Sequence record: PP400784
Origin: Escherichia phage FL38
Reading direction: 5' to 3' (one strand)
Length of the DNA: 64,000 nt
Part shown: one piece after another, positions 1,697 through 63,881 of the stretch
Layout: each line of letters begins with the position of its first letter
How positions within the stretch are numbered: the first letter of the stretch is position 1
Made by a program: the position numbers and the translations under genes
The notes under the pieces: generated by a model
The model's database searches: none
The model's input: the letters and a program-made list of their open reading frames with translations, nothing else
Told to the model about the DNA's origin: nothing

Positions 1697-4600
1697 ATGG
1701 CAGATTTTTCTCAACATTTCAAGGCCACATTTGGCTTTGACGCTGGTAATGAAAAGGTCGTCAATGTAGCATTGGCTGATAAGAATGTCAACACCGATGC
1801 GATCAACGTTGAATTTTTCAATTACCATAATGGTATTACTCAGTATGACACAACTCGCGGTTATGATCAATACGGAACTACAATCTATCAAAACCGTCCG
1901 TATTATGCAAAAGAAGATATCACAAAACCAGCAGGTGATTTTGACCCGACTAAATGGCAAGCACTGCGCACGGACCCACGTTGGGATTATATTGCAGCAA
2001 CTTCCGGTGATACTCCTTTACAGTCTGGTGATTATATCGCAGCAGATGGTCAATTTGCAAACTTGACTTTCTCTATGCCAACTAAGCCAGCAGAGGGAGA
2101 CACTATAACAGTAAAAGATATCGGTGGCAAGTGTGGTGTTAACGAATTATCGTTCTTGAGTACAGGACATGAGTTTTACCATAACGGTAATGTGTATAAC
2201 CGAAAATGGTATTGCACTACCCCGTATGCAATGAACTATTTCATCTTTGTTCGTAATCGTTGGCATGTTTATCAGACAGGAACAGAGCCACGCGGTGTGT
2301 ACGCACAGCCAGCGATTGATGCTATTCAAATGCAGAATGGTGATCAGGTATTTCGTCGTAGTTCGTTGGGTAATATTACCTTAGTGCTTCCTAAGTTTGC
2401 CAACAATGGCGACATGATCCAGACTACAGACCTTGACGGATTAACCGCAACCAACCACGTTACGGTTAAAGTTCATGAGCACGCAGAAGAACAATCAATT
2501 GGCACGTCCGGTCTAAAAGAGATTATCGGTAAGCGTAGCGGTCATGGTGTATTCATCTTTGACAAGACGGAAAACTTATGGCGTTTGTGGGATGGTGATC
2601 AGTCTGTTCGTCTTAAACCGATCATCGATGACACTCGCTTGCAACCTAATAGCTATGTTGCTGTATTTGGTGATCGTGATGTTACTCTGACGCTGCCGAC
2701 CAATATCGAGCCGGGTGATCGTATTCAAGTTTCTATGCAGTATATGAACGGAAACCAGAATTGCCGTATTATCACCGCCACAGAGGATACAAAAATCCTT
2801 ATGCAGAAAAACATGGTTCAGTTTCCTAAGCGTAGCGAGTACCCATTCAATGGGACCGATACATGGACGGGAGTATCTGAATTGTCTTTCAACGCTGCAA
2901 ATGATTATGTACCTTATCTGGAGTTCTCTTATTCAGAAGGTGATGATGGTAAGAAATACTGGTTGGTGGCACATCCTCACCCGATTGTAGAACGAGTAGA
3001 TCCGACTCGTAAAGATCGTGTTGGTGTAATTGCACTGGCTACCCAAACTGAAACGAATAAAAACCATGAAGAGAATCCTAGCGACGAAGTTGCAGTAACA
3101 CCAAAAATGCTGGCTAATAAAACCGCCAACGAAACTCGACGCGGTATTGCTCGCATTGCGACTCAAGCGGAAACGCATCAAGATACTGGTTCCAACTTCC
3201 TGGATGATGTTATCGTTACGCCTAAAAAGTTAAATGACTGTGTTGCTACCGAAGCCCGTCGTGGTGTGATGGAAATTGCAACCCAGCACGAAACCAATGA
3301 AGGTTTAGACGATACCCGCGCTATTACTCCTAAGAAATTAGAAGAACGTCGCGCTTCCGAAGATCTCGCTGGTATTGCTGAAATTGTTCAGGCTGGCGGC
3401 AGTGCTGCCGCTCGACGTGGCGAAGCTGGTACAGGGATCTATAACATCAATGACCATGCTAAAATTGTTACGCCAAAAAACATCAACGAAGTCAAGGCGA
3501 CCGAAACTTCCCGTGGTGTTGGCTATCTGGCAACTGACGCGGAAGTGCAAGGGGCTACAGAATCAACCCCGCAAGATGCTTTACTCATCACGACTCGCAC
3601 GCTAACGAAACGTACTGCTACCGAATCGCGCACTGGTATCGCTGAAATTGCAACTCAGGAAGAAACAAACTTAGGTCAAAGTGATAACCATATCATCACG
3701 CCTAAAAAGTTGCATACTCGCCGCGCAACGGAAACTTTACACGGTTTAGCAGAAATTGCAACTCAGCCGGAGTTTGACGCAGGTCGTGACGATTCTCGCA
3801 TTTCTACCCCATTGAAGATTAAAACCTTCTTTGAGAATGCACAGCGTTTGAAAGTAGATCCGACTCAGGGGCTTAACCTTACTGGTGATTTGTGGCAAGG
3901 TATCATGATCAGCGGTCTGGATGCAACCGAAGACACAAAAGGTGTCGCTAAAGTTGCTACTACTCAGCTTACTGACGCTGGTCAAGATGATACTACAATC
4001 ATCACGCCTAAAAAGCTGCAAGGCAAAAAGGCCACCGAAGGTAAAGAAGGCATTATCCGAGTTGGTACTCAAGCCGAAACCGTGGCTGGTATTATGGACA
4101 ATGTAGCAATTTCTCCGAAGAACTTCAAATATGTTGTTCAGACAGAGGATACATGGAAAGCAACCGAAGCGCGTCGTGGCTTCTTGAAAGTTGCTACTCA
4201 GGAAAACTGTTTTGTTGGTGATAATCTGCAAGGTTCTACTCAAGAACTAGGAAACTACCAGCATGACGGAATTGCTGTTACTCCGAAAGGATTAAACTAC
4301 GCACTTGCTAATTTCTTACCTAAGATGGCAACCGCTCAGAATAGTTTGAAATTGGGTAACGTAGAGGCCGCTAAATGGGCGCGTAGAGACATTGACCAGA
4401 CCATAGAGAGCAATTACACGTTTAATAAAAAAGTTAACGTGAAGGGCGATTTAGAGTGCTTAAAATCAGGTTCCTTTGAAACTCTGTCTGTGACTAAGAA
4501 CTCGACCGATGTTCCGAGTAATGGTCATCTGGTGTTGGGTGAGCGTGGAGTTGACGGTCACACCGGAATTACTCTGCATGGCACAACCGCATCGGAAGGC

Positions 4601-5437
4601 ATGAAAAACTCTTGGTCTATTATCGTTGGTGGTACTGGAACAGCGCAAGTTGTTGATAGTGATGCTATCGCTTTCGGTAAAATCAATGATGGTGGAGTCG
4701 TTGAGCATTACGCCTTTGCTATGAAACACAATGGCGACGCGACAGCATATCGAGACTTTATTGCAGGTCGTAACCTGTATGCGAAACAAGGCGGTTTATA
4801 CATTGTTGACCAGTCTAATCCGGCAATGACTCGTTCCCCAGATGGTATGCTGAATATCGGTCACGGTGGAAGTGTTAACATCAAGGCAGGGCATCAAACG
4901 TTAACTACAGAGATCGCCGGACAGAAGTATCAGATCGTACATGCAGGAAACGCTGACGAAGTTCTTAACCGTCAGTTTGTTAAGAATGCTGGCGATACAA
5001 TGGTCGGTAAGCTGACTATGGATAATGCGCCTATTGTTTCTGTTAAGCATGAAGCTAGCGCGGCAACCGCTCCGGCAATCGGTAACATCGGTTTCTGGAA
5101 TATGCGAGTTACTACCCAGAACATCAAAGAAACTTATCCAGAGAAGAAAAACGGTACTCTGATGCAATGGGGTACTGACGCGGACGGGCTTACCCAGCTT
5201 TGGTCCCCTGATGGTACTCATAAACATTATATCCGTTCCGGTACTGGTGGTCAATGGACCGCATGGGGTGAAATTTACACCAAACAGAACAAGCCTACCG
5301 CTCAGGAAATTGGGGCAGTGGTTGCCGAAGGTGGTTTGATGAACTCTATGACGGTTCGTGATTGGATCAAAGTTGGTAATGTTAAAATCATCGCCAATAA
5401 TCTGACTCGTACCGTAGACTTTATCTGGGAAGACTAA
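1697..5437 (+). CDS. 34: long tail fibre proximal subunit gp34
   Basis: 1246 aa; position after rnh as in T4; internal tandem ATE..RG.AEIATQ..ITPKKL fibre repeats; strong SD AAAGGAG. Confidence 0.9.
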   Translation: MADFSQHFKATFGFDAGNEKVVNVALADKNVNTDAINVEFFNYHNGITQYDTTRGYDQYGTTIYQNRPYYAKEDITKPAGDFDPTKWQALRTDPRWDYIAATSGDTPLQSGDYIAADGQFANLTFSMPTKPAEGDTITVKDIGGKCGVNELSFLSTGHEFYHNGNVYNRKWYCTTPYAMNYFIFVRNRWHVYQTGTEPRGVYAQPAIDAIQMQNGDQVFRRSSLGNITLVLPKFANNGDMIQTTDLDGLTATNHVTVKVHEHAEEQSIGTSGLKEIIGKRSGHGVFIFDKTENLWRLWDGDQSVRLKPIIDDTRLQPNSYVAVFGDRDVTLTLPTNIEPGDRIQVSMQYMNGNQNCRIITATEDTKILMQKNMVQFPKRSEYPFNGTDTWTGVSELSFNAANDYVPYLEFSYSEGDDGKKYWLVAHPHPIVERVDPTRKDRVGVIALATQTETNKNHEENPSDEVAVTPKMLANKTANETRRGIARIATQAETHQDTGSNFLDDVIVTPKKLNDCVATEARRGVMEIATQHETNEGLDDTRAITPKKLEERRASEDLAGIAEIVQAGGSAAARRGEAGTGIYNINDHAKIVTPKNINEVKATETSRGVGYLATDAEVQGATESTPQDALLITTRTLTKRTATESRTGIAEIATQEETNLGQSDNHIITPKKLHTRRATETLHGLAEIATQPEFDAGRDDSRISTPLKIKTFFENAQRLKVDPTQGLNLTGDLWQGIMISGLDATEDTKGVAKVATTQLTDAGQDDTTIITPKKLQGKKATEGKEGIIRVGTQAETVAGIMDNVAISPKNFKYVVQTEDTWKATEARRGFLKVATQENCFVGDNLQGSTQELGNYQHDGIAVTPKGLNYALANFLPKMATAQNSLKLGNVEAAKWARRDIDQTIESNYTFNKKVNVKGDLECLKSGSFETLSVTKNSTDVPSNGHLVLGERGVDGHTGITLHGTTASEGMKNSWSIIVGGTGTAQVVDSDAIAFGKINDGGVVEHYAFAMKHNGDATAYRDFIAGRNLYAKQGGLYIVDQSNPAMTRSPDGMLNIGHGGSVNIKAGHQTLTTEIAGQKYQIVHAGNADEVLNRQFVKNAGDTMVGKLTMDNAPIVSVKHEASAATAPAIGNIGFWNMRVTTQNIKETYPEKKNGTLMQWGTDADGLTQLWSPDGTHKHYIRSGTGGQWTAWGEIYTKQNKPTAQEIGAVVAEGGLMNSMTVRDWIKVGNVKIIANNLTRTVDFIWED
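3010..4300 (+). repeat. in-frame tandem ~40-aa tail-fibre repeats within gp34 (about 9 copies)
   Basis: Repeated ...TPKKL....ATE.RRG.AEIATQ.E... units seen in the translation. Confidence 0.6.
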
Positions 5438-15138: not shown

Positions 15139-15173
15139 GGGAGTATCTTACTACTCCCTTAATCCGGTGTCAA
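15139..15173 (-). promoter_or_regulatory. early promoter with inverted repeat (type II): -35 TTGACA, GGGAGTA/TACTCCC arms flanking -10 TAAGAT
   Basis: Minus strand reads TTGACA-17 nt-TAAGAT with a 7-bp palindrome around the -10; upstream of 14352..15110. Confidence 0.5.
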
Positions 15174-15179
15174 CTATTT

Positions 15180-15335
15180 TTAAATTTCTTCTACAGTAAA
15201 GTCTTCAATGTTATTGTGCTCGGAGAACGTTGCCAGACCAGCATTCCATGCATCATCCTCAGAGAAGAATACACCGTAACGTTCATATCCTTTAGCGCCT
15301 TCAAATTTAACCATTAATTTGTGAGTATGTTTCAT
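15180..15335 (-). CDS. hypothetical protein (51 aa; start trimmed to internal ATG)
   Basis: Track ORF 15180..15398 begins inside the promoter palindrome; internal ATG MKHTHK has SD GGAGAATCAAA. Confidence 0.45.
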   Translation of the reverse strand: MKHTHKLMVKFEGAKGYERYGVFFSEDDAWNAGLATFSEHNNIEDFTVEEI

Positions 15336-15366
15336 TTTGATTCTCCTTCGTTGTCTTGATGAGTTC

Positions 15367-15396
15367 ATTGTAGGGGATCGGCGATCCCCTGTCAAC
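15367..15396 (-). promoter_or_regulatory. early promoter with palindromic spacer (type I): GTTGACA-GGGGATCGCCGATCCCC-TACAAT
   Basis: Perfect 17-nt palindrome fills the -35/-10 spacer exactly. Confidence 0.6.
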
Positions 15397-15405
15397 AACT
15401 ATTTT

Positions 15406-15618
15406 TTAATTTTTACCCGCTCGTGCATTAATACGCATTTTCTGAATAGCCATGATCTGGCTTACTGCTTCTTCTTTACGTTCTTGCGTGATAACGTGAC
15501 CAGATTCCGCAAACTCTCCCGCAACTTCTTCTACGATCTCGCGAACTTGAGAACGTCCAAAGATGCGGTTTCCTTCGTAGCTCATAAACTCGGTTACTAC
15601 TTGCTCGATAGATTTCAT
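15406..15618 (-). CDS. hypothetical protein (70 aa)
   Basis: ORF with SD; preceded by promoter/palindrome element. Confidence 0.5.
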   Translation of the reverse strand: MKSIEQVVTEFMSYEGNRIFGRSQVREIVEEVAGEFAESGHVITQERKEEAVSQIMAIQKMRINARAGKN

Positions 15619-15642: not shown

Positions 15643-15678
15643 GGGAGTATGTTAATACTCCCATTTCTTTACGTCAAC
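15643..15678 (-). promoter_or_regulatory. early promoter with inverted repeat (type II): TTGACG-17 nt-TAACAT inside GGGAGTAT/ATACTCCC
   Basis: Seen on minus strand upstream of 15406..15618. Confidence 0.5.
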
Positions 15679-15684
15679 CAGTTT

Positions 15685-15927
15685 TTAGAAATTTTTCGCT
15701 TCTTCTTCGGTCATCATCACCGCGCATTCGTGCATAACTTTGAAAACCGGATCAATCATATCGAATGCTTCGCGGGACAGTTTACGAGAAGCGATTTTGA
15801 TTGCTTCTACGTCTTCTACTACAGGAACAAAAACAGTTTTCAGTTCATCGAGAACGGCAGCTTCTTTTTCATTCAGGAAGATACCAGCGTCATACAGTGC
15901 AACTTCGATAACATTAACTTTAACCAT
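15685..15927 (-). CDS. hypothetical protein (80 aa)
   Basis: ORF in dense minus-strand array. Confidence 0.5.
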   Translation of the reverse strand: MVKVNVIEVALYDAGIFLNEKEAAVLDELKTVFVPVVEDVEAIKIASRKLSREAFDMIDPVFKVMHECAVMMTEEEAKNF

Positions 15928-15966
15928 TTTAATTCCTCCAGTTCGTTTAGGTATGGGAGTATAATA

Positions 15967-16191
15967 CTACCGATGACCTTTGGCGTCAACTGCTTTTTTA
16001 TTATTTTCGTGAAAATTTTTCGTCGCCTCATGTGCTTTTCGCTGGGCTTCTTGTTGTGCTTGCTGGCGTGCTGCCTCTTGTGAAGCCATAACGGAAGCAT
16101 TTGCAGCAGTTACAGCCGCTACCATCGCTGCGGTATTAGCATTTACAGTACATGCACTAGCCAGCAAAGCAATTGCAATCATTTTCTTCAT
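15967..16191 (-). CDS. small secreted/lipoprotein-like protein (74 aa)
   Basis: Signal peptide MKKMIAIALLASAC with possible lipobox, Ala/Gln-rich. Confidence 0.5.
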   Translation of the reverse strand: MKKMIAIALLASACTVNANTAAMVAAVTAANASVMASQEAARQQAQQEAQRKAHEATKNFHENNKKAVDAKGHR

Positions 16192-23710: not shown

Positions 23711-23776
23711 ATAAGTCAACCTTTTGTTTTCGATGGGGACATTATGATATATCCCCGATCCAGTGTCAACAGATTT

Positions 23777-24076
23777 TTAATCTTTTTTCAATGCATCCAT
23801 TACTCGCTCTGCGATCAGTTCTCGTAAGCACTGATAACCATGATATTTGATGGCAATGTCACGCAGATCATTAACCAGTTCCCGTACTTCATGGTCTTTC
23901 AGATCGTCTCTGTATTTCGATTTAACCGTGTCTTTAGGTGGATTGTGGATAACCTGAAAACCTTGTTCTGCAATCACTGCGGCTTCTCGCTGGCGTTCAT
24001 GTTGTACTGTATTTTTGATCAGGTCTACTTCCATGAACTTTGTCATGCTCATCATCATGTTATTCTTTTTGCTCAT
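23777..24076 (-). CDS. hypothetical protein (99 aa; start trimmed to MSKKNN)
   Basis: Track N-terminus reads through the promoter/palindrome; internal ATG has SD GAGGA. Confidence 0.5.
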   Translation of the reverse strand: MSKKNNMMMSMTKFMEVDLIKNTVQHERQREAAVIAEQGFQVIHNPPKDTVKSKYRDDLKDHEVRELVNDLRDIAIKYHGYQCLRELIAERVMDALKKD

Positions 24077-25965: not shown

Positions 25966-26068
25966 TATTAAACCTCTTCATAACATAACCATAACTTACT
26001 GCAACCGCCACAAAGACGGCTGCAACAATCATATTAAAAATTGAGTGATTGTCAAGTATATGACTCAT
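25958..26068 (-). CDS. putative small single-TM peptide (36 aa)
   Basis: Not in ORF track; ATG overlaps upstream stop (ATGA); stop overlaps gp39 start; hydrophobic core MIVAAVFVAVAVSYGYV. Confidence 0.35.
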   Translation of the reverse strand: MSHILDNHSIFNMIVAAVFVAVAVSYGYVMKRFNNE

Positions 26069-26238
26069 GACACGCGCACATTTTTATCATAGTACCCGCC
26101 ATTAATCCCGCGCGGGGCAGTTAATCCCTGTTTGCATTCTTTACCACATTCAGGGCATTCTGCCTTTTCACGTTCGGAAATTTTGCGGATTTTCTGAAAT
26201 TGACCGTGTTCTTCACAAGAATAATCATATAATGGCAT
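26065..26238 (-). CDS. FmdB-like zinc-ribbon protein (57 aa; start trimmed)
   Basis: MPLYDYSCEEHGQF ... CPECGK matches the FmdB-type CxxC zinc-ribbon pattern. Confidence 0.45.
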   Translation of the reverse strand: MPLYDYSCEEHGQFQKIRKISEREKAECPECGKECKQGLTAPRGINGGYYDKNVRVS

Positions 26239-26239
26239 A

Positions 26240-26908
26240 TTATCCCCTTTGTTTCTTAACTGAATTTGGATCTGGATTTTCTGGTAGGTCTTCCAGACCC
26301 ATAGCATAACGTTGTGCATAGATTAGCATAAGAATATCGCGAGCGCAATCATGAATTGCATCATGTGCGATAAAACCATCTAGCGTACCCATTGGTAACG
26401 GACACTCACACATCCCGCGATGCATCAATGTACGCTCAATGGCGGTGCGAACATCTCGGATATTCCAGAATCGCACAGGTTCAAGGCTGAACGTCTCTCG
26501 TGTATTGTGTGCACGTCGAATCATATCAACTAGTAATGGAATATCAAACGCATTACCGCGTGACCACATTACGGATTTAACCGGATCTACCCCTACGGAT
26601 TCACAGAATGCGTTAAAACGCGCTAAACCTTCTTTAGTTGATACTTCCGTACCATTTGTGATTAATTGCTTTCTCATGCCTTCTGAGGCGGTATTCTTCC
26701 ACCATTCAACCACACCATGATCAAACACCCTTACACCTTTCTGGGAAGGAATATCAAATTTTACCAGAAAGGAATTGTCAACCAGTTCTTTAAATGTAGG
26801 TGGATTGTGCGGATCTTCTTTAAATCCGATTGCCGCCATATTGATAACCGCCCCATCAGGCGGATAACCTAAACTTTCAAAGTCAATCATTAAATCCACT
26901 GGAAGCAT
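26240..26908 (-). CDS. dexA: exonuclease A (DnaQ-like 3'-5' exonuclease)
   Basis: Start trimmed to MLPVDLMIDFESLG (SD GGAGGA); DnaQ-like Exo motif; T4 dexA is 227 aa; position between 39 and dda. Confidence 0.7.
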   Translation of the reverse strand: MLPVDLMIDFESLGYPPDGAVINMAAIGFKEDPHNPPTFKELVDNSFLVKFDIPSQKGVRVFDHGVVEWWKNTASEGMRKQLITNGTEVSTKEGLARFNAFCESVGVDPVKSVMWSRGNAFDIPLLVDMIRRAHNTRETFSLEPVRFWNIRDVRTAIERTLMHRGMCECPLPMGTLDGFIAHDAIHDCARDILMLIYAQRYAMGLEDLPENPDPNSVKKQRG

Positions 26909-26909
26909 G

Positions 26910-27152
26910 TTAAATATCCTCCGCGATGTGCCGGAACAACTCCAGATCGTTTTTATCCAGAATGAAACCGCTACAATCAATAATCCCGTTACCGTAATTA
27001 TCGGTTAACAGTCGTTCCGTTGCCATGTATGCGCGTACTTTGTTGTTAAAATTCATTACATGTTGTGCATAGTCACAATGAATCTTTTGACGGTTCCACG
27101 CGACAATTGATTGTAGATGTATTACATTAGCCACATTATTAATAACAACCAT
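26910..27152 (-). CDS. hypothetical protein (80 aa; start chosen at ATG coupled to upstream stop)
   Basis: Track ORF 26910..27215 extends into the repeat; TGAnATG junction with the gene above. Confidence 0.45.
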   Translation of the reverse strand: MVVINNVANVIHLQSIVAWNRQKIHCDYAQHVMNFNNKVRAYMATERLLTDNYGNGIIDCSGFILDKNDLELFRHIAEDI

Positions 27153-27213
27153 ATCAAAACCCTCGCTTAGTGGAATGTTCTGGCATTTTATTGATACATT
27201 CAGCTTGGTAGTC
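27149..27213 (-). repeat. direct repeat copy 1 (~65 bp) spanning a gene junction
   Basis: About 85% identical to 27328..27391. Confidence 0.6.
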
Positions 27214-27330
27214 ACGAGATTTTTTTGACGAATTAAGAGCTACAGCCAAAAAATCCTGTAACTGTTCGTTTGTCATTTTTGGCTTACACCGCGTATCTAA
27301 ACCCTTCGTTCTTCTAGCTTCATTAGCCAT
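27154..27330 (-). CDS. hypothetical small protein (58 aa), ends ...ECINKMPEHSTKRGF
   Basis: Not in ORF track; C-terminus encoded by direct repeat copy 1. Confidence 0.4.
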   Translation of the reverse strand: MANEARRTKGLDTRCKPKMTNEQLQDFLAVALNSSKKSRDYQAECINKMPEHSTKRGF

Positions 27331-27391
27331 ATCAAAAACCTCGCTTAGTGAAATGCTCGATCATTTTATTGATACATGCAGCTTCACTATC
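27328..27391 (-). repeat. direct repeat copy 2 (~65 bp) spanning a gene junction
   Basis: About 85% identical to 27149..27213. Confidence 0.6.
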
Positions 27392-27499
27392 GCCGGACAC
27401 GTTCCAGCCGTATAGACCCCATCTAAAGCACATGGTAACAGTTCCATTGTGACGGCTTACCGTCACATCATTAAATTCTGGGATACTTCGCATAATCAT
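27332..27499 (-). CDS. hypothetical small protein (55 aa), ends ...ACINKMIEHFTKRGF
   Basis: Not in ORF track; SD GAGGAAA; C-terminus encoded by direct repeat copy 2. Confidence 0.4.
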   Translation of the reverse strand: MIMRSIPEFNDVTVSRHNGTVTMCFRWGLYGWNVSGDSEAACINKMIEHFTKRGF

Positions 27500-27509
27500 A
27501 ATAATTTCC

Positions 27510-28901
27510 TCAAATATAGTCTACTCGATACCTCGCACGGGTAACACCCACATATAATAACTGCATTGCCAATTCAAAGTCAACATTGTCTGTACACATG
27601 CAAGGAGTATACAGGAACACGCGGTCTACGCTGATCCCTTGTGACTTATGAATGGTGCAAGCTGGTAATGCTTTTACATTCAAGAACATACGCTTCATCG
27701 TCCAGAAGGAATCCCAATCTGGTTTAAATTTTGGATTCTCTTTCTTCATTTCGCGATATTGTCCGGCGACCGTATTCAGATAGATAGAGAAAATGTTCTT
27801 CTGACGTTGTTCTGTCAGAATGTTGATTTCTACTAAATCTGGTTTATCTGTAGTGATTCCGACTGCATCTAAACCGACTTTCTGATTTAGGATTTCTTTG
27901 TCTTCGTCATCATCGACGCTTTCCACTTTCAGAGTATATCCTAAAACTGGTTGCGGATCTACCCCCGTGCAACGTAATGTAAATTCACGCGGGATGACCT
28001 CTTTAACTCGGATCATCTCACCATTGTTAAAAATAACATTGGGAATCTTCTTCCCGCGTTCATCTCGCAGATATTCGATCAATGGTTCCTGAGTAACCAG
28101 AATTTCATCTACAATCACTGGTTCATCGGTGTTATAAACGCGCTTACGTACAATTTCATTGAGTTTTTCGACGCTCTTGTTAGTGTAGGCCAGAATACGG
28201 TTTTCTAGAAGGTCTTCCGGCGTTTTAACGGTTTCGAAATAATGCTTCATAAACTCCGGCAGAGTTGAGCTATGGAATACACCCTCGTTACCGCACTGCT
28301 TTTCGAATACCCATTTACCATTACGGACAGCGGTCGCCACATCAATTATTGGAGCATTAGATCGTTTAATCTCTGTAAGTTCTACATTCTGAAACCTTTC
28401 ATCGGTGAAGAAAGGAGAGATCGACGTTGCACCGCTCGGATCAACTGGTCGTAACTGGTTCAGATCACCCACGGCAATAATAACAATTCGACCGTTGATA
28501 CTCTTCATGAGAATATCAAATAGTTTCTTATCGACCATACTCGCTTCATCAACAATGATGATCTGAACATCATCTAGCTTAGGAGTATCTTTTTGCTCAA
28601 ATACTTGAGTATCTTCATAGTTGGTCGGGTTTAGTCGCAGTAGTGCATGTAAAGTAAATGCTTGACGACCTACCGCTTTACTCAAAACTTTTTTAGCCTG
28701 GTGGGTAGGCGTTGCCAAAACCACACCAGTTACCCCACGACGGACCATTTCCTGAACAATGAATTTCATCATTGCGGTTTTACCAGTACCCGCCGCACCA
28801 CGGACAGTTGTATGCTTCTTTTGTTCAATACGTTTCATTAGAACATCAAAAGCATGTTTTTGCCCGTCTGTTAACATATCGAAAGTTAATACTCTGCTCA
28901 T
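27510..28901 (-). CDS. dda: Dda-like SF1B DNA helicase
   Basis: 463 aa; Walker A GAAGTGKT; VDEASMV Walker B; position after dexA as in T4. Confidence 0.85.
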   Translation of the reverse strand: MSRVLTFDMLTDGQKHAFDVLMKRIEQKKHTTVRGAAGTGKTAMMKFIVQEMVRRGVTGVVLATPTHQAKKVLSKAVGRQAFTLHALLRLNPTNYEDTQVFEQKDTPKLDDVQIIIVDEASMVDKKLFDILMKSINGRIVIIAVGDLNQLRPVDPSGATSISPFFTDERFQNVELTEIKRSNAPIIDVATAVRNGKWVFEKQCGNEGVFHSSTLPEFMKHYFETVKTPEDLLENRILAYTNKSVEKLNEIVRKRVYNTDEPVIVDEILVTQEPLIEYLRDERGKKIPNVIFNNGEMIRVKEVIPREFTLRCTGVDPQPVLGYTLKVESVDDDEDKEILNQKVGLDAVGITTDKPDLVEINILTEQRQKNIFSIYLNTVAGQYREMKKENPKFKPDWDSFWTMKRMFLNVKALPACTIHKSQGISVDRVFLYTPCMCTDNVDFELAMQLLYVGVTRARYRVDYI

Positions 28902-33107: not shown

Positions 33108-33743
33108 TCAATCGAATGTAGAAAGCAACTGTTTTGTTTCTTTCAGTTGTCGTTCAAGATTTTTGCGTTTCTCTTTAAGTTGCATTTTAGCATTATTTCG
33201 CTCTCTTGTAACCTCTTTATCAATGCTCTTATTCCAGTTATCAATATCAGAATAAGTTGGCATACCCAATTCTAGACCTAATGCGGTTGGATGCAGGGTA
33301 ACAGTCCATAAACCGCTAATCTTCTTAAATAGGTCGGGGTGTAGTGTACTATCTACATCTTCCGGTGTCAACTCTTTTTCTTCTTTCAGTGGTGGGATCT
33401 CGTCATATGGTTCCAGTGCATTTACTTTAATATCAGATACCTCATCAAAGAATCCGCGTACATCCGCAGGAAATACACAAGCAATTTCCCAACCGTGATC
33501 ACGCAGAGAAGTAATATTTTTCACTCCCCCACCATGTGTGATGATTGATGTGACATTGCCATCAAGGTCCACCGAATTTACGAGAAATGGCTTATCGTCT
33601 GTCAGATCATTATAAAACTGTGCTTCGGCTGTAGTCATCTCCAGAAACAGATCTCGGATCGGACGACCATCAGGTGCGTTACCTTCCTTGAGAGTATAAA
33701 AGCGACTTACGATCCATTTTGGCGGTAAAGCATTAGCGATCAT
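33108..33743 (-). CDS. hypothetical protein (211 aa)
   Basis: ORF; coiled-coil C-terminus. Confidence 0.5.
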   Translation of the reverse strand: MIANALPPKWIVSRFYTLKEGNAPDGRPIRDLFLEMTTAEAQFYNDLTDDKPFLVNSVDLDGNVTSIITHGGGVKNITSLRDHGWEIACVFPADVRGFFDEVSDIKVNALEPYDEIPPLKEEKELTPEDVDSTLHPDLFKKISGLWTVTLHPTALGLELGMPTYSDIDNWNKSIDKEVTRERNNAKMQLKEKRKNLERQLKETKQLLSTFD

Positions 33744-53842: not shown

Positions 53843-53884
53843 ATTTGATTCTCCTGTAAAGTTGTATCTCGTCTTGATGAATAT

Positions 53885-53914
53885 AGTATAGGGGATCTCG
53901 CGATCCCCGTCAAG
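53885..53914 (-). promoter_or_regulatory. early promoter with palindromic spacer (type I): TTGACG-GGGATCGCGAGATCCCC-TATACT
   Basis: Inverted repeat fills the spacer. Confidence 0.55.
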
Positions 53915-53917
53915 CAT

Positions 53918-54466
53918 TTATTTTAAATTTTTTCGAATGTAGTCAGACCATTCCTTCCCTGTCAGTTCGGTCCCATTCTGGAAACTGAAATATTCATACG
54001 GCATCGAGTCAAGATAAAACAGGATCATACATCGCGCCATATAATACCAATCACGATTAAAGTAAACTACGTTATCACCAGTACCATCAACCCCTTTATC
54101 ATAACCATCGCGGGTACGGGCGACCCATTGAATAGTATCATTTTTCTCGCGGATCGTAACAGGTTCCCAATATCCAGCACATCCAGCATGACCACACGAA
54201 CAAGTCAGGAAATATTGACCTTTTGCTTTGTTGTCATCCCATTCACGATGGATTGGTTCGATCTCGTGAAACAGTGCTAAGCAATCATGATTATGCAACA
54301 CTGGCTTACCATCAATCAATGCATGGAATGTATACAAACGACCAGTAGACAAATAGCTATCCTCACGCTCAACCAGTTCAATAGCAATCTTTTTAGCTCG
54401 TTCTTTGTGTCGTTGTGCTTTACGCTTACGGTTTAATGATTTCATATTCACCTCACACATTATCAA
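53918..54466 (-). CDS. hypothetical protein (182 aa) with Cys cluster CSCGHAGCAGY
   Basis: ORF between nrdD and nrdG. Confidence 0.5.
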   Translation of the reverse strand: MIMCEVNMKSLNRKRKAQRHKERAKKIAIELVEREDSYLSTGRLYTFHALIDGKPVLHNHDCLALFHEIEPIHREWDDNKAKGQYFLTCSCGHAGCAGYWEPVTIREKNDTIQWVARTRDGYDKGVDGTGDNVVYFNRDWYYMARCMILFYLDSMPYEYFSFQNGTELTGKEWSDYIRKNLK

Positions 54467-58762: not shown

Positions 58763-58797
58763 GGGAGTATCTTACTACTCCCGTTTCATCATGTCAA
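58763..58797 (-). promoter_or_regulatory. early promoter with inverted repeat (type II): TTGACA-17 nt-TAAGAT within GGGAGTA/TACTCCC
   Basis: Palindrome identical to the one at 15139. Confidence 0.55.
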
Positions 58798-59378
58798 GCG
58801 TTAAATGACTTTTGGATCTCTTTCAGTTCAGCTACTTTATCTGCGCTGAATTTAGCGTAGGTATCATGTCGAATAATTTCACTTTCAAGAAAGGTTTCCA
58901 GTCGAGATCTATTTTCAATAAGGAACTCTTTCAGGTCTTCCGCGTTCTTGACAAAGATTTTATTGTCGGTAATGTCATCTTCAATCGCAAAGGAGATAGA
59001 GCGAACTTTACCAAACAAGTTAATCAGATCTTCCAGAGATTCTTCTTTCTTAACTGGTTTCATTTCTTCAAACTGCTTTTTAGTGATGCGTTTAAAGTAT
59101 TTGCGCTCGCTTGCATCAATCATGATTGACGCACCCTCATAATCATGAGTTTCTACCAAATACACTTTACCCATAACATTAACCGTAAGAACTTTAAAGC
59201 CCCTGTGAAGCACACCATACAGGAACTTGTTATGTTGTGGGTAGCGTTTAACAAATTCCTCTGCGGACTCAGCATTACGGAAAGTGTAATAACGACCTCG
59301 TTCAAAAACAGCATCATTTGAAGACTTAGCCGGATACAATTTATACGTTTTCTGTACCATAATATAATCCTCTATCAT
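58794..59378 (-). CDS. repeat-domain family protein (1 domain + helical tail)
   Basis: FERGRYYTF...GFKVL...ERKYFKRI, tail with AEDLKEFLIEN. Confidence 0.6.
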   Translation of the reverse strand: MIEDYIMVQKTYKLYPAKSSNDAVFERGRYYTFRNAESAEEFVKRYPQHNKFLYGVLHRGFKVLTVNVMGKVYLVETHDYEGASIMIDASERKYFKRITKKQFEEMKPVKKEESLEDLINLFGKVRSISFAIEDDITDNKIFVKNAEDLKEFLIENRSRLETFLESEIIRHDTYAKFSADKVAELKEIQKSFNA

Positions 59379-59707
59379 TTCACTAATTGAACAGCACGGA
59401 ACAGAATGCGCTCACACGGAAGCAGCATAAATTCCCAACGCGGATCAAAGTCTTTAGCGGTGTATGTTTTCCCATCAACCGAGATTTCACTTACATAACC
59501 AACAGGTGACACTTTAAGAACAGTAAACCCATTCTTGATGACTTCGTAGGTATATTTCACCCCTTCGTATTCATCATCTAAGAAGTCTTTATGTGCTTGC
59601 TCAGATTTAAAAACATAGGCAACACCGGATTTAAACATCTTACGCATTGTTGATTCTCCTTCTTGATTAGATGGGAGTATTTTACTACTCCCATTTCTTA
59701 TTGTCAA
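59375..59707 (-). CDS. repeat-domain family protein (single domain, no tail)
   Basis: MFKSGVAYVF...GFTVLKV...ERILFRAV. Confidence 0.55.
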   Translation of the reverse strand: MTIRNGSSKILPSNQEGESTMRKMFKSGVAYVFKSEQAHKDFLDDEYEGVKYTYEVIKNGFTVLKVSPVGYVSEISVDGKTYTAKDFDPRWEFMLLPCERILFRAVQLVK

Positions 59708-59708
59708 C
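59673..59708 (-). promoter_or_regulatory. early promoter with inverted repeat (type II): GTTGACA-17 nt-TAAAAT within GGGAGTA/TACTCCC
   Basis: Between gene 49 and the family gene 59375..59707. Confidence 0.55.
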
Positions 59709-59710
59709 TA

Positions 59711-60199
59711 CTATCTTAATCTTTGTATGAATTGTTTCTTATACTTCTTCGTGATTTCTTCTCGTGTATCAGCGTCGCAGTAATCGAAACCTTCTGCGTC
59801 CATAATATCAACCATCTCCGCGCGTGTCAAGCGTGAAAATCGTTTTACTTTATCAACAGCATATTGAGGATGTAAATGATTGTTGGTGTAGTCTCCTTTG
59901 ATGTAATTAACATAGTTTGTAGCCCAAACAACGAAATCAGCACCTAAAGCACCAACACCAAACCGTTTAAAGTCTCCGGTCAACGATCCTTCTAGGCGGT
60001 TGCAACACGAATGAAGCAATCCCCTTACGCGGCCTTGCCCTTTCCCATCTAGATCGTGGTCGTGGTCAAGATGGTTTTTGCTCATATCCTCAAAAAGTGG
60101 CAATTGACAAAGGGGGCAAATGCCCCCCTGTTTTTCGAATAGTTCTTGTTTGTACTCTTTAGCACTCTTAGCAGTCAGTAACATAAATTCACCCTCCAA
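59711..60199 (-). CDS. 49: endonuclease VII (Holliday junction resolvase)
   Basis: 162 aa; C.LCQ zinc site, HLDHDH...G..RGLL..CN..EG and YIK.DYT.N..HP match T4 gp49. Confidence 0.88.
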   Translation of the reverse strand: MEGEFMLLTAKSAKEYKQELFEKQGGICPLCQLPLFEDMSKNHLDHDHDLDGKGQGRVRGLLHSCCNRLEGSLTGDFKRFGVGALGADFVVWATNYVNYIKGDYTNNHLHPQYAVDKVKRFSRLTRAEMVDIMDAEGFDYCDADTREEITKKYKKQFIQRLR

Positions 60200-63536: not shown

Positions 63537-63578
63537 TTTGATTCTCCTTAAGAAAGTGTGTTTCGTTTTGATGTGTGT

Positions 63579-63608
63579 AGTATAGGGGATCACCGATCCC
63601 CTGTCAAC
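63579..63608 (-). promoter_or_regulatory. early promoter with palindromic spacer (type I): GTTGACA-GGGGATCGGTGATCCCC-TATACT
   Basis: Perfect 17-nt palindrome as spacer. Confidence 0.6.
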
Positions 63609-63623
63609 AACTTTTTTATGATT

Positions 63624-63881
63624 TTAGTGAATTAACTCTACACCAAAATGAGGCACAGAGAACGCCTTACAAAACACATATTCATCATGTTTAGGAATCG
63701 CCCCTAACCGCTCTATTTCGCTCGCTAACACTATAAACTGTTTATCTGGTGCATATGCCTTGCGTGCTTCAACAACGCACGGAAAACGCGTTTTAGAGAG
63801 TTCTGGATAGTTTTCCGAATCCAGCAGGACAATGAATACCCTGTTACATTGATTGTAGAATCCTGTTTTTGATTTCATCAA
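63624..63881 (-). CDS. hypothetical protein (85 aa)
   Basis: ORF. Confidence 0.5.
   Translation of the reverse strand: MMKSKTGFYNQCNRVFIVLLDSENYPELSKTRFPCVVEARKAYAPDKQFIVLASEIERLGAIPKHDEYVFCKAFSVPHFGVELIH

Follow-up and report, generated by a model that had tools for sequence, protein, structure and literature searches.

A 58-nt direct repeat around a chimeric small gene between dda and dexA of Escherichia phage FL38, probably the scar of a foreign DNA insertion

How does a small gene that only part of a phage group possesses come to lie in a tightly packed row of genes, bracketed by two copies of the same short sequence? This question is raised by a locus in a stretch of 64,000 nt from Escherichia phage FL38 (sequence record PP400784), which is referred to as the window. 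At this locus the minus strand carries all genes, in the order dda, ORF010, ORF009.1, ORF009, dexA (ORF, open reading frame), and a 58-nt direct repeat covers the junctions on both sides of ORF009.1. According to our analysis, this arrangement is probably an insertion scar, which consists of foreign DNA and a 58-bp duplication of the target. The locus is a fresh example of a known evolutionary process and not a new kind of element.

A repeat search of the window placed the two copies at 27149-27206 and 27327-27384. They align without gaps over 58 nt, are identical at 51 of these positions (88%), and are spaced 178 nt from start to start. On the coding strand the unit reads AAGCTG(C/A)ATGTATCAATAAAATG...CACTAAGCGAGG(T/G)TTTTGATATGG. 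The search thus confirmed the direct repeats in the dexA-dda interval that a preliminary description, made from the sequence alone, had reported. Its estimate of about 85% identity over about 65 bp held for the similarity (~83% over 65 nt), whereas the extent had been set 7 nt too long. The surplus lies on the side that is upstream in the coding sense, and only 3 of its 7 bases agree between the copies. The edges of the repeat are sharp, as an in-register comparison gave background identity directly beyond the 58 nt on both sides. Two sub-patterns of the repeat (23-25 nt, at most 3 mismatches) matched the 64 kb at these two sites only, compared to 0.00-0.01 matches expected from shuffles, which excludes chance. 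The junction pattern likewise had two matches in the window, both in the repeat copies, with 0.16 expected. The search for the same unit elsewhere, which the preliminary description had proposed, returned nothing outside the locus, neither in the window at 2-3 mismatches nor in 50,697 phage records. Among 58 Krischvirus records, the number of copies per genome never exceeds two, and these always reside at the dda-dexA locus. The repeat is confined to this one locus and is not a dispersed mobile module. Two other repeat pairs in the window were considered as further junction duplications and rejected. The pair 3674-3714/3980-4020 is an internal motif (...IATQxET...ITPKKL...) of a 1246-aa protein encoded at 1697..5437 on the plus strand, and the pair 58430-58479/59059-59108 is common to paralogous genes of 392 and 194 aa (...SERKYFKRI(S/T)K...).

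Comparison with related genomes revealed a presence/absence polymorphism with the same period as the repeat. Over the interval 26850-27560, the window shares 99.9% identity with Escherichia phage Delraymugoa and 92-99% with the 58 Krischvirus records, and by its sequence it belongs to Krischvirus (RB49/Phi1/JSE/GEC-3S group, T4-type coliphages). Alleles were fetched record by record, and IMG/VR yielded three loci. The full interval aligned in 17 of the 58 records, while the other 41 aligned in two pieces and are 178 bp shorter. In the alignment, the missing segment is a unique 120-nt insert, termed X (27207-27326), plus one repeat copy, which together are exactly ORF009.1. Genomes of the RB49 and JSE type are collinear with the window apart from these 178 bp. 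Outside this single unit, genomes that have it and genomes that lack it are 93-99% identical. In KFS-EC and its relatives, the most divergent clade and the outgroup, the ORF010 homologue is directly followed by the ORF009 homologue, and hence the single-copy arrangement is likely ancestral. The window-type and the RB49-type haplogroup of ORF010 each comprise one-copy as well as two-copy genomes. On neighbor-joining trees of the left flank (dda and the ORF010 body) and of the right flank (ORF009 and dexA), genomes with and without the segment are interleaved, and the two trees conflict with each other. Such interleaving and conflict would be expected of a polymorphism that segregates in a freely recombining population.

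The features of the locus are listed below, with gene names according to the collinear RB49 and Phi1 annotations and the ORF list of the window.

27510..28901, minus strand: dda, a helicase gene of 463 aa at the upstream limit of the interval; annotated as Dda DNA helicase in RB49 and Phi1, which are collinear
27332..27499, minus strand: ORF010 (55 aa), conserved small Krischvirus gene with its last 16 codons in the upstream repeat copy
27154..27330, minus strand: ORF009.1 (58 aa), putatively chimeric ORFan, in 17 of 58 Krischvirus records
26910..27152, minus strand: ORF009 (80 aa), conserved small gene (phrog_15021)
26240..26908, minus strand: dexA, exonuclease A gene (669 nt with stop); downstream boundary of the interval
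27327..27384, minus strand: upstream repeat copy, U; 3' end of ORF010 with Shine-Dalgarno, TGA, T and ATGG; the predicted start of ORF009.1 lies here
27149..27206, minus strand: downstream repeat copy, D; tail of ORF009.1, with Shine-Dalgarno, stop and ATGG for ORF009
27207..27326, minus strand: unique insert X (120 nt) between the repeat copies; X and one copy make up 178 bp
27220..27315, minus strand: N4-like part of X, residues 6-37 of ORF009.1 (hhalign, tblastn and DNA local alignment)
27220..27226, minus strand: A7 homopolymer in ORF009.1 (T7 on the plus strand), frameshift hotspot
27327..27342, minus strand: junction GAGGTTTTTGATATGG, with Shine-Dalgarno, ORF010 stop, 1 nt and ORF009.1 start
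27149..27164, minus strand: junction GAGGGTTTTGATATGG, with Shine-Dalgarno, ORF009.1 stop, 1 nt and ORF009 start

Each repeat copy encodes the last 16 residues of its own ORF, (A/E)CINKM(I/P)EH(F/S)TKRGF, which belong to the C-termini ...AACINKMIEHFTKRGF of ORF010 and ...AECINKMPEHSTKRGF of ORF009.1. These are followed in both copies by a GAGG Shine-Dalgarno motif 8 nt before the ATG, the TGA, a single T, and the ATGG of the following gene, so that the similarity extends across the stop/start junction and 4 nt into the gene that follows. This agrees with the preliminary description, which had recognized small-protein tails joined to a TGAnATG coupling junction (TGA-T-ATG-G in both copies) and had regarded the two small proteins as otherwise unrelated: ORF010 and ORF009.1 are assigned to different PHROGs (16162 and 37371), and their cross-match is limited to the last 21 residues. 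Every junction from ORF010 to 39.2 consists of a stop, 1 nt and an ATG, with GAGG 8-9 nt upstream (window 26065-27499; L002, 716-2150). This suggests that the genes downstream of dda, from ORF010 to 39.2, form one tightly coupled translational unit, and it shows that the duplication kept the local layout. As both repeat copies have the layout GAGG-N8-ATG with TGA-T-ATG, their junctions are probably used as translation starts. Viable frameshift alleles that stop at least 35 nt upstream (Makalu, ECD7 and pEJ01) suggest that coupling is not essential. On the minus strand at 27340-27393, the U copy and 5 nt of non-repeat flank fold into a hairpin of -21.5 kcal/mol (z -2.2), which stops just short of the Shine-Dalgarno motif and is restricted to the window-type allele, being absent in the RB49 allele and in the D copy. 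This predicted hairpin could be an allele-specific modulation of ORF009.1 translation or could have arisen by chance.

Several observations indicate which of the two copies came first. ORF010 was found in 76 phage records, all of them Krischvirus-type matches, and the tail motif (A/D/E)CIN(K/N/S)M(I/V)(E/D)(H/Y)FT is retained in ORF010 homologues of 47-69% identity (KFS-EC, P0132 and P0135). An AlphaFold2 model of ORF010 with a predicted local distance difference test (pLDDT) score of 80 has the order beta-beta-beta-alpha, and its sole helix, residues 39-52, is encoded by the repeat. Because the tail is kept in distant homologues and forms the only predicted helix, we conclude that it is native to ORF010 and that the ORF009.1 copy is derived. 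On this evidence from alignment and modeling, U appears to be the original copy and D the derived one. The ORF010 model had no significant structural neighbor in the PDB and only its own orthologue, from Krischvirus phage PHB13, in BFVD; a resemblance to double-stranded RNA-binding domains was weak and non-significant. At ~35% identity, tblastn matches to ORF010 were seen in Kagunavirus siphophages (L027, 601-738), where they lie in an unannotated stretch just 3' of a gene labelled NinH. None of the three small proteins (ORF010, ORF009.1 and ORF009) matched Pfam above the cut-offs, and their PHROGs are all of unknown function.

ORF009.1 was previously listed as ORFan009.1, a phi1-unique ORF placed outside the hyperplastic regions (Arbiol et al. 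2010, PMC2839356). That study mentions neither the flanking repeat nor the chimeric origin, and full-text literature searches found no other description of them. In a collection of 5.8 billion proteins, ORF009.1 is represented by eight clusters, all from Krischvirus and several of them truncated, and a word-indexed protein search for a donor likewise retrieved Krischvirus copies only. However, tblastn gave weak matches (52% identity) to a small ORF of N4-like Gamaleyavirus phages, the family of which comprises ~150 clusters on contigs of ~70-74 kb. With hhalign, residues 6-37 of ORF009.1 aligned to residues 17-48 of this family (probability 97%, E 1.1e-10, 50% identity). Local DNA alignments of X to four N4-like members had scores of 40-59, compared to shuffle means of 20-21 (sd ~3), and reach the codons AAA-TCT-CGT, 7 nt before the repeat. 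A donor scan of IMG/VR and metagenome contigs with a degenerate DNA pattern for MTNEQLQ(D/E)F matched only N4-like contigs and one chance site. Proteins of the N4-like family begin and end invariantly (MRKSLIMGTKEDV... and ...IVTFNHP), and their middle is hypervariable and modular. The invariant termini are absent from ORF009.1, which argues that only an internal fragment was captured. Hence, judging from the alignments, insert X is of foreign origin and ORF009.1 is a three-part chimera of a junction-derived ATGG, an internal N4-like fragment, and the duplicated ORF010 tail. The structural model of ORF009.1 has low confidence (pLDDT 65). Within the N4-like family, a MTNEQLQEFIDAGLKQSK segment occurs in only some members and varies in position relative to another variable block (L006, 1153-1332; P0009-P0128). 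The family looks like an in-frame module-shuffling hotspot itself.

The most probable explanation can be laid out as follows. An ancestor organized like RB49, JSE and KFS-EC would have had ORF010 followed directly by ORF009, and the last ~22 nt of its ORF010 (CACTAAGCGAGGkTTTTGA-T-ATGG) would have served as Shine-Dalgarno motif and stop/start junction for ORF009. During co-infection of E. coli, a ~120-nt fragment of a small N4-like coliphage gene may then have entered between ORF010 and ORF009 by illegitimate recombination, guided by microhomology at best, in which the end points were staggered. One end point behind ...GATATGG in one parental molecule and one ahead of AAGCTG... in a second molecule would have duplicated 58 bp. 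The foreign fragment would have gained a ribosome-binding site and an ATG from U and, by running in frame into D, would have become the chimeric ORF009.1, while ORF010 would have stayed whole and ORF009 would have kept the same signals, a ribosome-binding site and a stop/start junction of 1 nt. Such an insertion would not have disturbed the tightly coupled early operon, and its product presumably survived for this reason. From then on, the 58-bp flanking homology would offer a substrate to the very active homologous recombination of the phage, with conversion and the precise excision of 178 bp as expected outcomes, and homologous recombination in dda and dexA would have spread the cassette across Krischvirus backgrounds. 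A single-copy resident source of the repeat, which an insertion presupposes, is found in that the outgroup and most relatives are single-copy and the tail is native to ORF010. The preliminary description had proposed a DNA-level module, be it a recombination scar, a shuffling site or a duplicated coupling element, instead of a gene duplication, and this view is supported by the sharp DNA edges that include the stop/start junction, the exact 178-bp indel, and the N4-like middle.

The evolution of the two copies after the duplication was assessed by comparing distinct alleles. The ratio of nonsynonymous to synonymous differences (pN/pS, Nei-Gojobori) was 0.22 for the whole of ORF010, 0.21 for the repeat-encoded codons of U, 0.34 for X, and 0.83 for the repeat-encoded codons of ORF009.1 in D, figures that rest on few substitutions. 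At the codon of the conserved Ile, D copies have CCA (P), ACA (T), TCA (S) or ATC (I), and Phe is replaced by Ser in several of them. The 3' 22 nt (CACTAAGCGAGGkTTTTGATATGG), by contrast, are invariant across D copies save for G/T at position 47; among U and single copies, position 42 is A in pEJ01 and Whisky. The invariant 3' end next to drifting codons indicates that the translation start of ORF009 is conserved, and not the peptide. Functional constraint thus looks to act on the last ~22 nt only, as a translation start, while the rest of D drifts.

In 4 of the 12 distinct two-copy genomes, ORF009.1 is frameshifted at homopolymers by four independent alleles, namely A8 in ECD7 and A6 in the Makalu phages (001 and 002), both at the A7 run, T5 in pEJ01, and one additional A within the D copy of 011D4. 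The homopolymers of these +1 and -1 shifts are the A7 run and the T6 and A4 runs in 27149-27330. Truncated ORF009.1 proteins of matching kinds were present in other assemblies (e.g. P0006 and P0007). In the metagenomic allele P0005, a -1 shift is accompanied by a +1 shift and the last 10 residues are regained, and allele P0003, having lost its TGA stop, runs on for 5 codons into ORF009. The D copies also show signs of sequence exchange. The states specific to D are CCA at positions 24-26 and C at position 34, and U-type replacements of these were found in Makalu, Phi1, GEC-3S and ECD7. None of the D-specific states occurs in the D copy of Makalu, which matches the U copy of the same genome at 57 of 58 positions, and the D copies of Phi1, GEC-3S and ECD7 have the U-type T34 and T47. 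Such mosaic D copies point to gene conversion, be it between U and D or with single-copy alleles as donors, and excision by crossover between U and D is plausible.

A comparable arrangement is known from the promoter-early stem-loop (PeSL) cassettes of RB49, phi1 and other T4-like phages (PMC2839356, PMC4122927), and PeSL recombination was held to be behind most such ORFan differences (Arbiol et al., PMC2839356). The locus shares with them the phage group, a differentially present small ORFan between direct repeats of ~60-100 bp, expression signals for the flanked gene within the repeat, and the expectation that recombination between the repeats would delete the ORF and leave one chimeric repeat and a small circle. 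However, PeSLs are intergenic, combine a strong sigma-70-like early promoter with a stable GC-rich terminator stem-loop and occur many times per genome, mostly in hyperplastic regions, whereas the present repeat comprises coding sequence and a ribosome-binding and stop/start junction at one locus. Neither copy has a promoter-like site on the coding (minus) strand or a terminator-like site. A structured RNA was also rejected, as there was no Rfam match at E ≤ 1 and no conserved fold: fold z-scores were +0.36 (D copy) and +0.53 (RB49 copy), and the one low value, -2.2, belongs to the window-type U allele, the stem of which uses non-repeat flank. The window does contain ten dispersed repeats of 40-80 nt in two families (15139-15181, 15353-15413, 15643-15685, 15955-15997, 23727-23787, 33337-33379, 53871-53931, 58763-58805, 59673-59715 and 63565-63625). 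In each of them TGTCAAC, a -35 box in reverse complement, comes after a GC-rich stem-loop of the form GGGAGTA...TACTCCC or GGGGATC...GATCCCC. These repeats look like PeSL cassettes as in RB49 and phi1. Those nearest to the locus are at 23.7 kb and 33.3 kb, and none is at dda-dexA.

Other known systems resemble the locus in part. As in a transposon target-site duplication, a direct repeat of the target flanks an inserted segment. Target-site duplications of transposons and insertion sequences are short, 2-15 bp. The 58 bp found here far exceed what transposases make, and a transposon footprint was rejected since the 120-nt insert is an internal gene fragment with no bounding terminal inverted repeats, no transposase and no Pfam or PHROG function. 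A paralogue pair or tandem gene duplication was rejected as well, as the similarity ends at 58 nt, the PHROGs differ, and the middle of ORF009.1 is N4-like. Another likeness is to the junctions of imported DNA in T4-related genomes that bear no known mobile-element signatures and for which illegitimate additions have been proposed (Petrov et al. 2010, PMC2993671). Comeau et al. (2014, PMC4122927) also allowed for recombination at small non-PeSL sequences that are homologous at random, where short direct repeats are treated as deletion substrates with reference to Albertini et al. (1982, as cited in PMC4122927). Shared features are foreign DNA that has no transposon or site-specific signature and short repeats as substrates for precise deletion; in contrast to these cases, both junctions can be placed here at single-nucleotide resolution, the duplicated target measures 58 bp, and the donor lineage can be named (N4-like Schitoviridae). 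The locus also resembles chimeric or de novo formation of ORFans in its internal fragment with a start and tail from the neighbors, its restricted distribution and its relaxed constraint, but it is an individual case with no general family, and the provenance of all three parts is unusually clear.

We weighed the insertion scar against other accounts of the same data. It is unlikely, though worth serious attention, that the two-copy state is the older one within the RB49-like group and that single-copy genomes arose by repeated precise deletion between the repeats. The 178-bp gap is exactly one repeat period, and on both flank trees the genomes with one copy are dispersed between those with two; this interleaving, however, is explained equally well by ordinary homologous exchange in dda and dexA. 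T4-type phages are generally known to delete between short direct repeats, and the PeSL papers invoke a like process. The single copies of kaaroe and Whisky, both of the window-type haplogroup, are U-like on the left and have the D-type G at position 47, but this position is polymorphic in U copies as well. Deletion as the main driver is opposed by the single-copy KFS-EC outgroup clade and by the lack of CCA or C34 in all 13 distinct single-copy alleles, as these states would be expected from crossovers in the left 60% of the repeat, although selection on the ORF010 tail could hide them. Another account, which we consider very unlikely, is that the shared C-terminal peptide is a functional module, i.e. 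that ORF009.1 acquired the ORF010 helix because this helix directs the two proteins to a common partner, and that the copies are kept alike by selection on the peptide. The in-frame fusion, the full tail in 8 of 12 two-copy genomes, the helical prediction for the tail in both proteins and the restoration of the last 10 residues by the compensating frameshifts in P0005 would all fit such a module. They are set against the pN/pS of the D codons, which contrasts with that of the same codons in ORF010, the substitutions at the conserved Ile codon and from F to S in D, and the removal or scrambling of the tail by frameshifts in ECD7, the Makalu phages, pEJ01 and 011D4. The identity moreover runs past the stop codon into the next gene, which is a DNA-level and not a protein-level signature.

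More improbable still is a two-step origin, in which ORF010 was duplicated in tandem and the second body was then overwritten by foreign DNA except for its 3' end. It would lead to the same order of repeat, X and repeat, and 178 bp is close to the length of ORF010 with its spacer (169 bp), but two rare events would be needed instead of one, an intermediate with two ORF010-like bodies was present in 0 of 58 records, and X retains no similarity to the ORF010 body in register. That the repeat is a dedicated regulatory or mobile cassette, a coding-region analogue of PeSLs which moves genes in T4-type genomes, appears extremely improbable. ORF009.1 is indeed differential and bracketed by direct repeats, like PeSL-flanked ORFans, and the 3' part of the repeat contains expression signals. 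This account is largely refuted by the search of 50,697 phage records, in which the unit was confined to this locus and never exceeded two copies in a genome; promoter-like sites, terminator-like stem-loops, Rfam matches and a conserved fold are missing from the repeat, and the true PeSL-like repeats of the window sit elsewhere. A bolder variant of the insertion scenario, in which the 58-nt unit is a reusable docking site and thus the counterpart of a PeSL in coding sequence, and ORF009.1 is a young functional gene kept in some ecological settings, is doubtful and somewhat less likely than a history of repeated deletion. If it were true, a gene body together with the junction of the next gene could be reversibly inserted and excised by homologous recombination with the coupled early operon left undisturbed, and ORF009.1 would be built from an N4-like peptide module and the ORF010 helix.

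The insertion scar, which we favor, also has observations to its disadvantage. Between the homologous part of X and its best N4-like relatives, identity amounts to only ~50% for amino acids and ~70-75% for nucleotides, and a closer donor was absent from IMG/VR and the metagenome contigs. As there is no close donor, the chemistry of the junctions is not directly readable. Microhomology is weak, since the 10-nt CATGTATCAA at the left edge of the repeat matches the 3' end of one N4-like allele but is absent from three others. All pN/pS values rest on a small number of substitutions. The pN/pS of X and the intact ORF in 8 of 12 two-copy genomes mean that ORF009.1 may not be mere debris. No single-copy allele has the D-specific states CCA and C34, by which a product of excision between U and D could be recognized.

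Another difference in gene content occurs ~1 kb from the locus. In Skers, MIZ6 and PHB13, a 729-nt gene occupies the position that the 3' part of gene 39 has in other Krischvirus records (L008, 1-613; L019, 1-612; L020, 1-612). It is annotated as an endonuclease, or as a hypothetical protein in PHB13, and is probably a homing-endonuclease insertion. Its presence is uncorrelated with the ORF009.1 indel.

T4-type phages have hundreds of small ORFans of mostly unknown origin, and the PeSL model does not cover ORFs that lie inside conserved tight operons. The dda-dexA locus provides an alternative route that is resolved to the nucleotide, in which a gene fragment would have been captured from the unrelated N4-like podovirus family that shares E. 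coli hosts. The duplicated 3' end of a neighboring gene and its ribosome-binding junction would have made this fragment translatable, and the flanking homology thereby created permits conversion and probably also loss. Patchy distribution, a near-neutral borrowed tail and recurrent homopolymer frameshifts portray a young chimeric ORF in a population. The practical value is modest: annotation should treat ORF009.1 and its truncated forms as one locus, and the locus is a natural substrate for measuring short-repeat recombination in Krischvirus. For the T4-type phages, it represents a concrete, junction-resolved case of the general ideas of Petrov et al. (2010) and Comeau et al. (2014).

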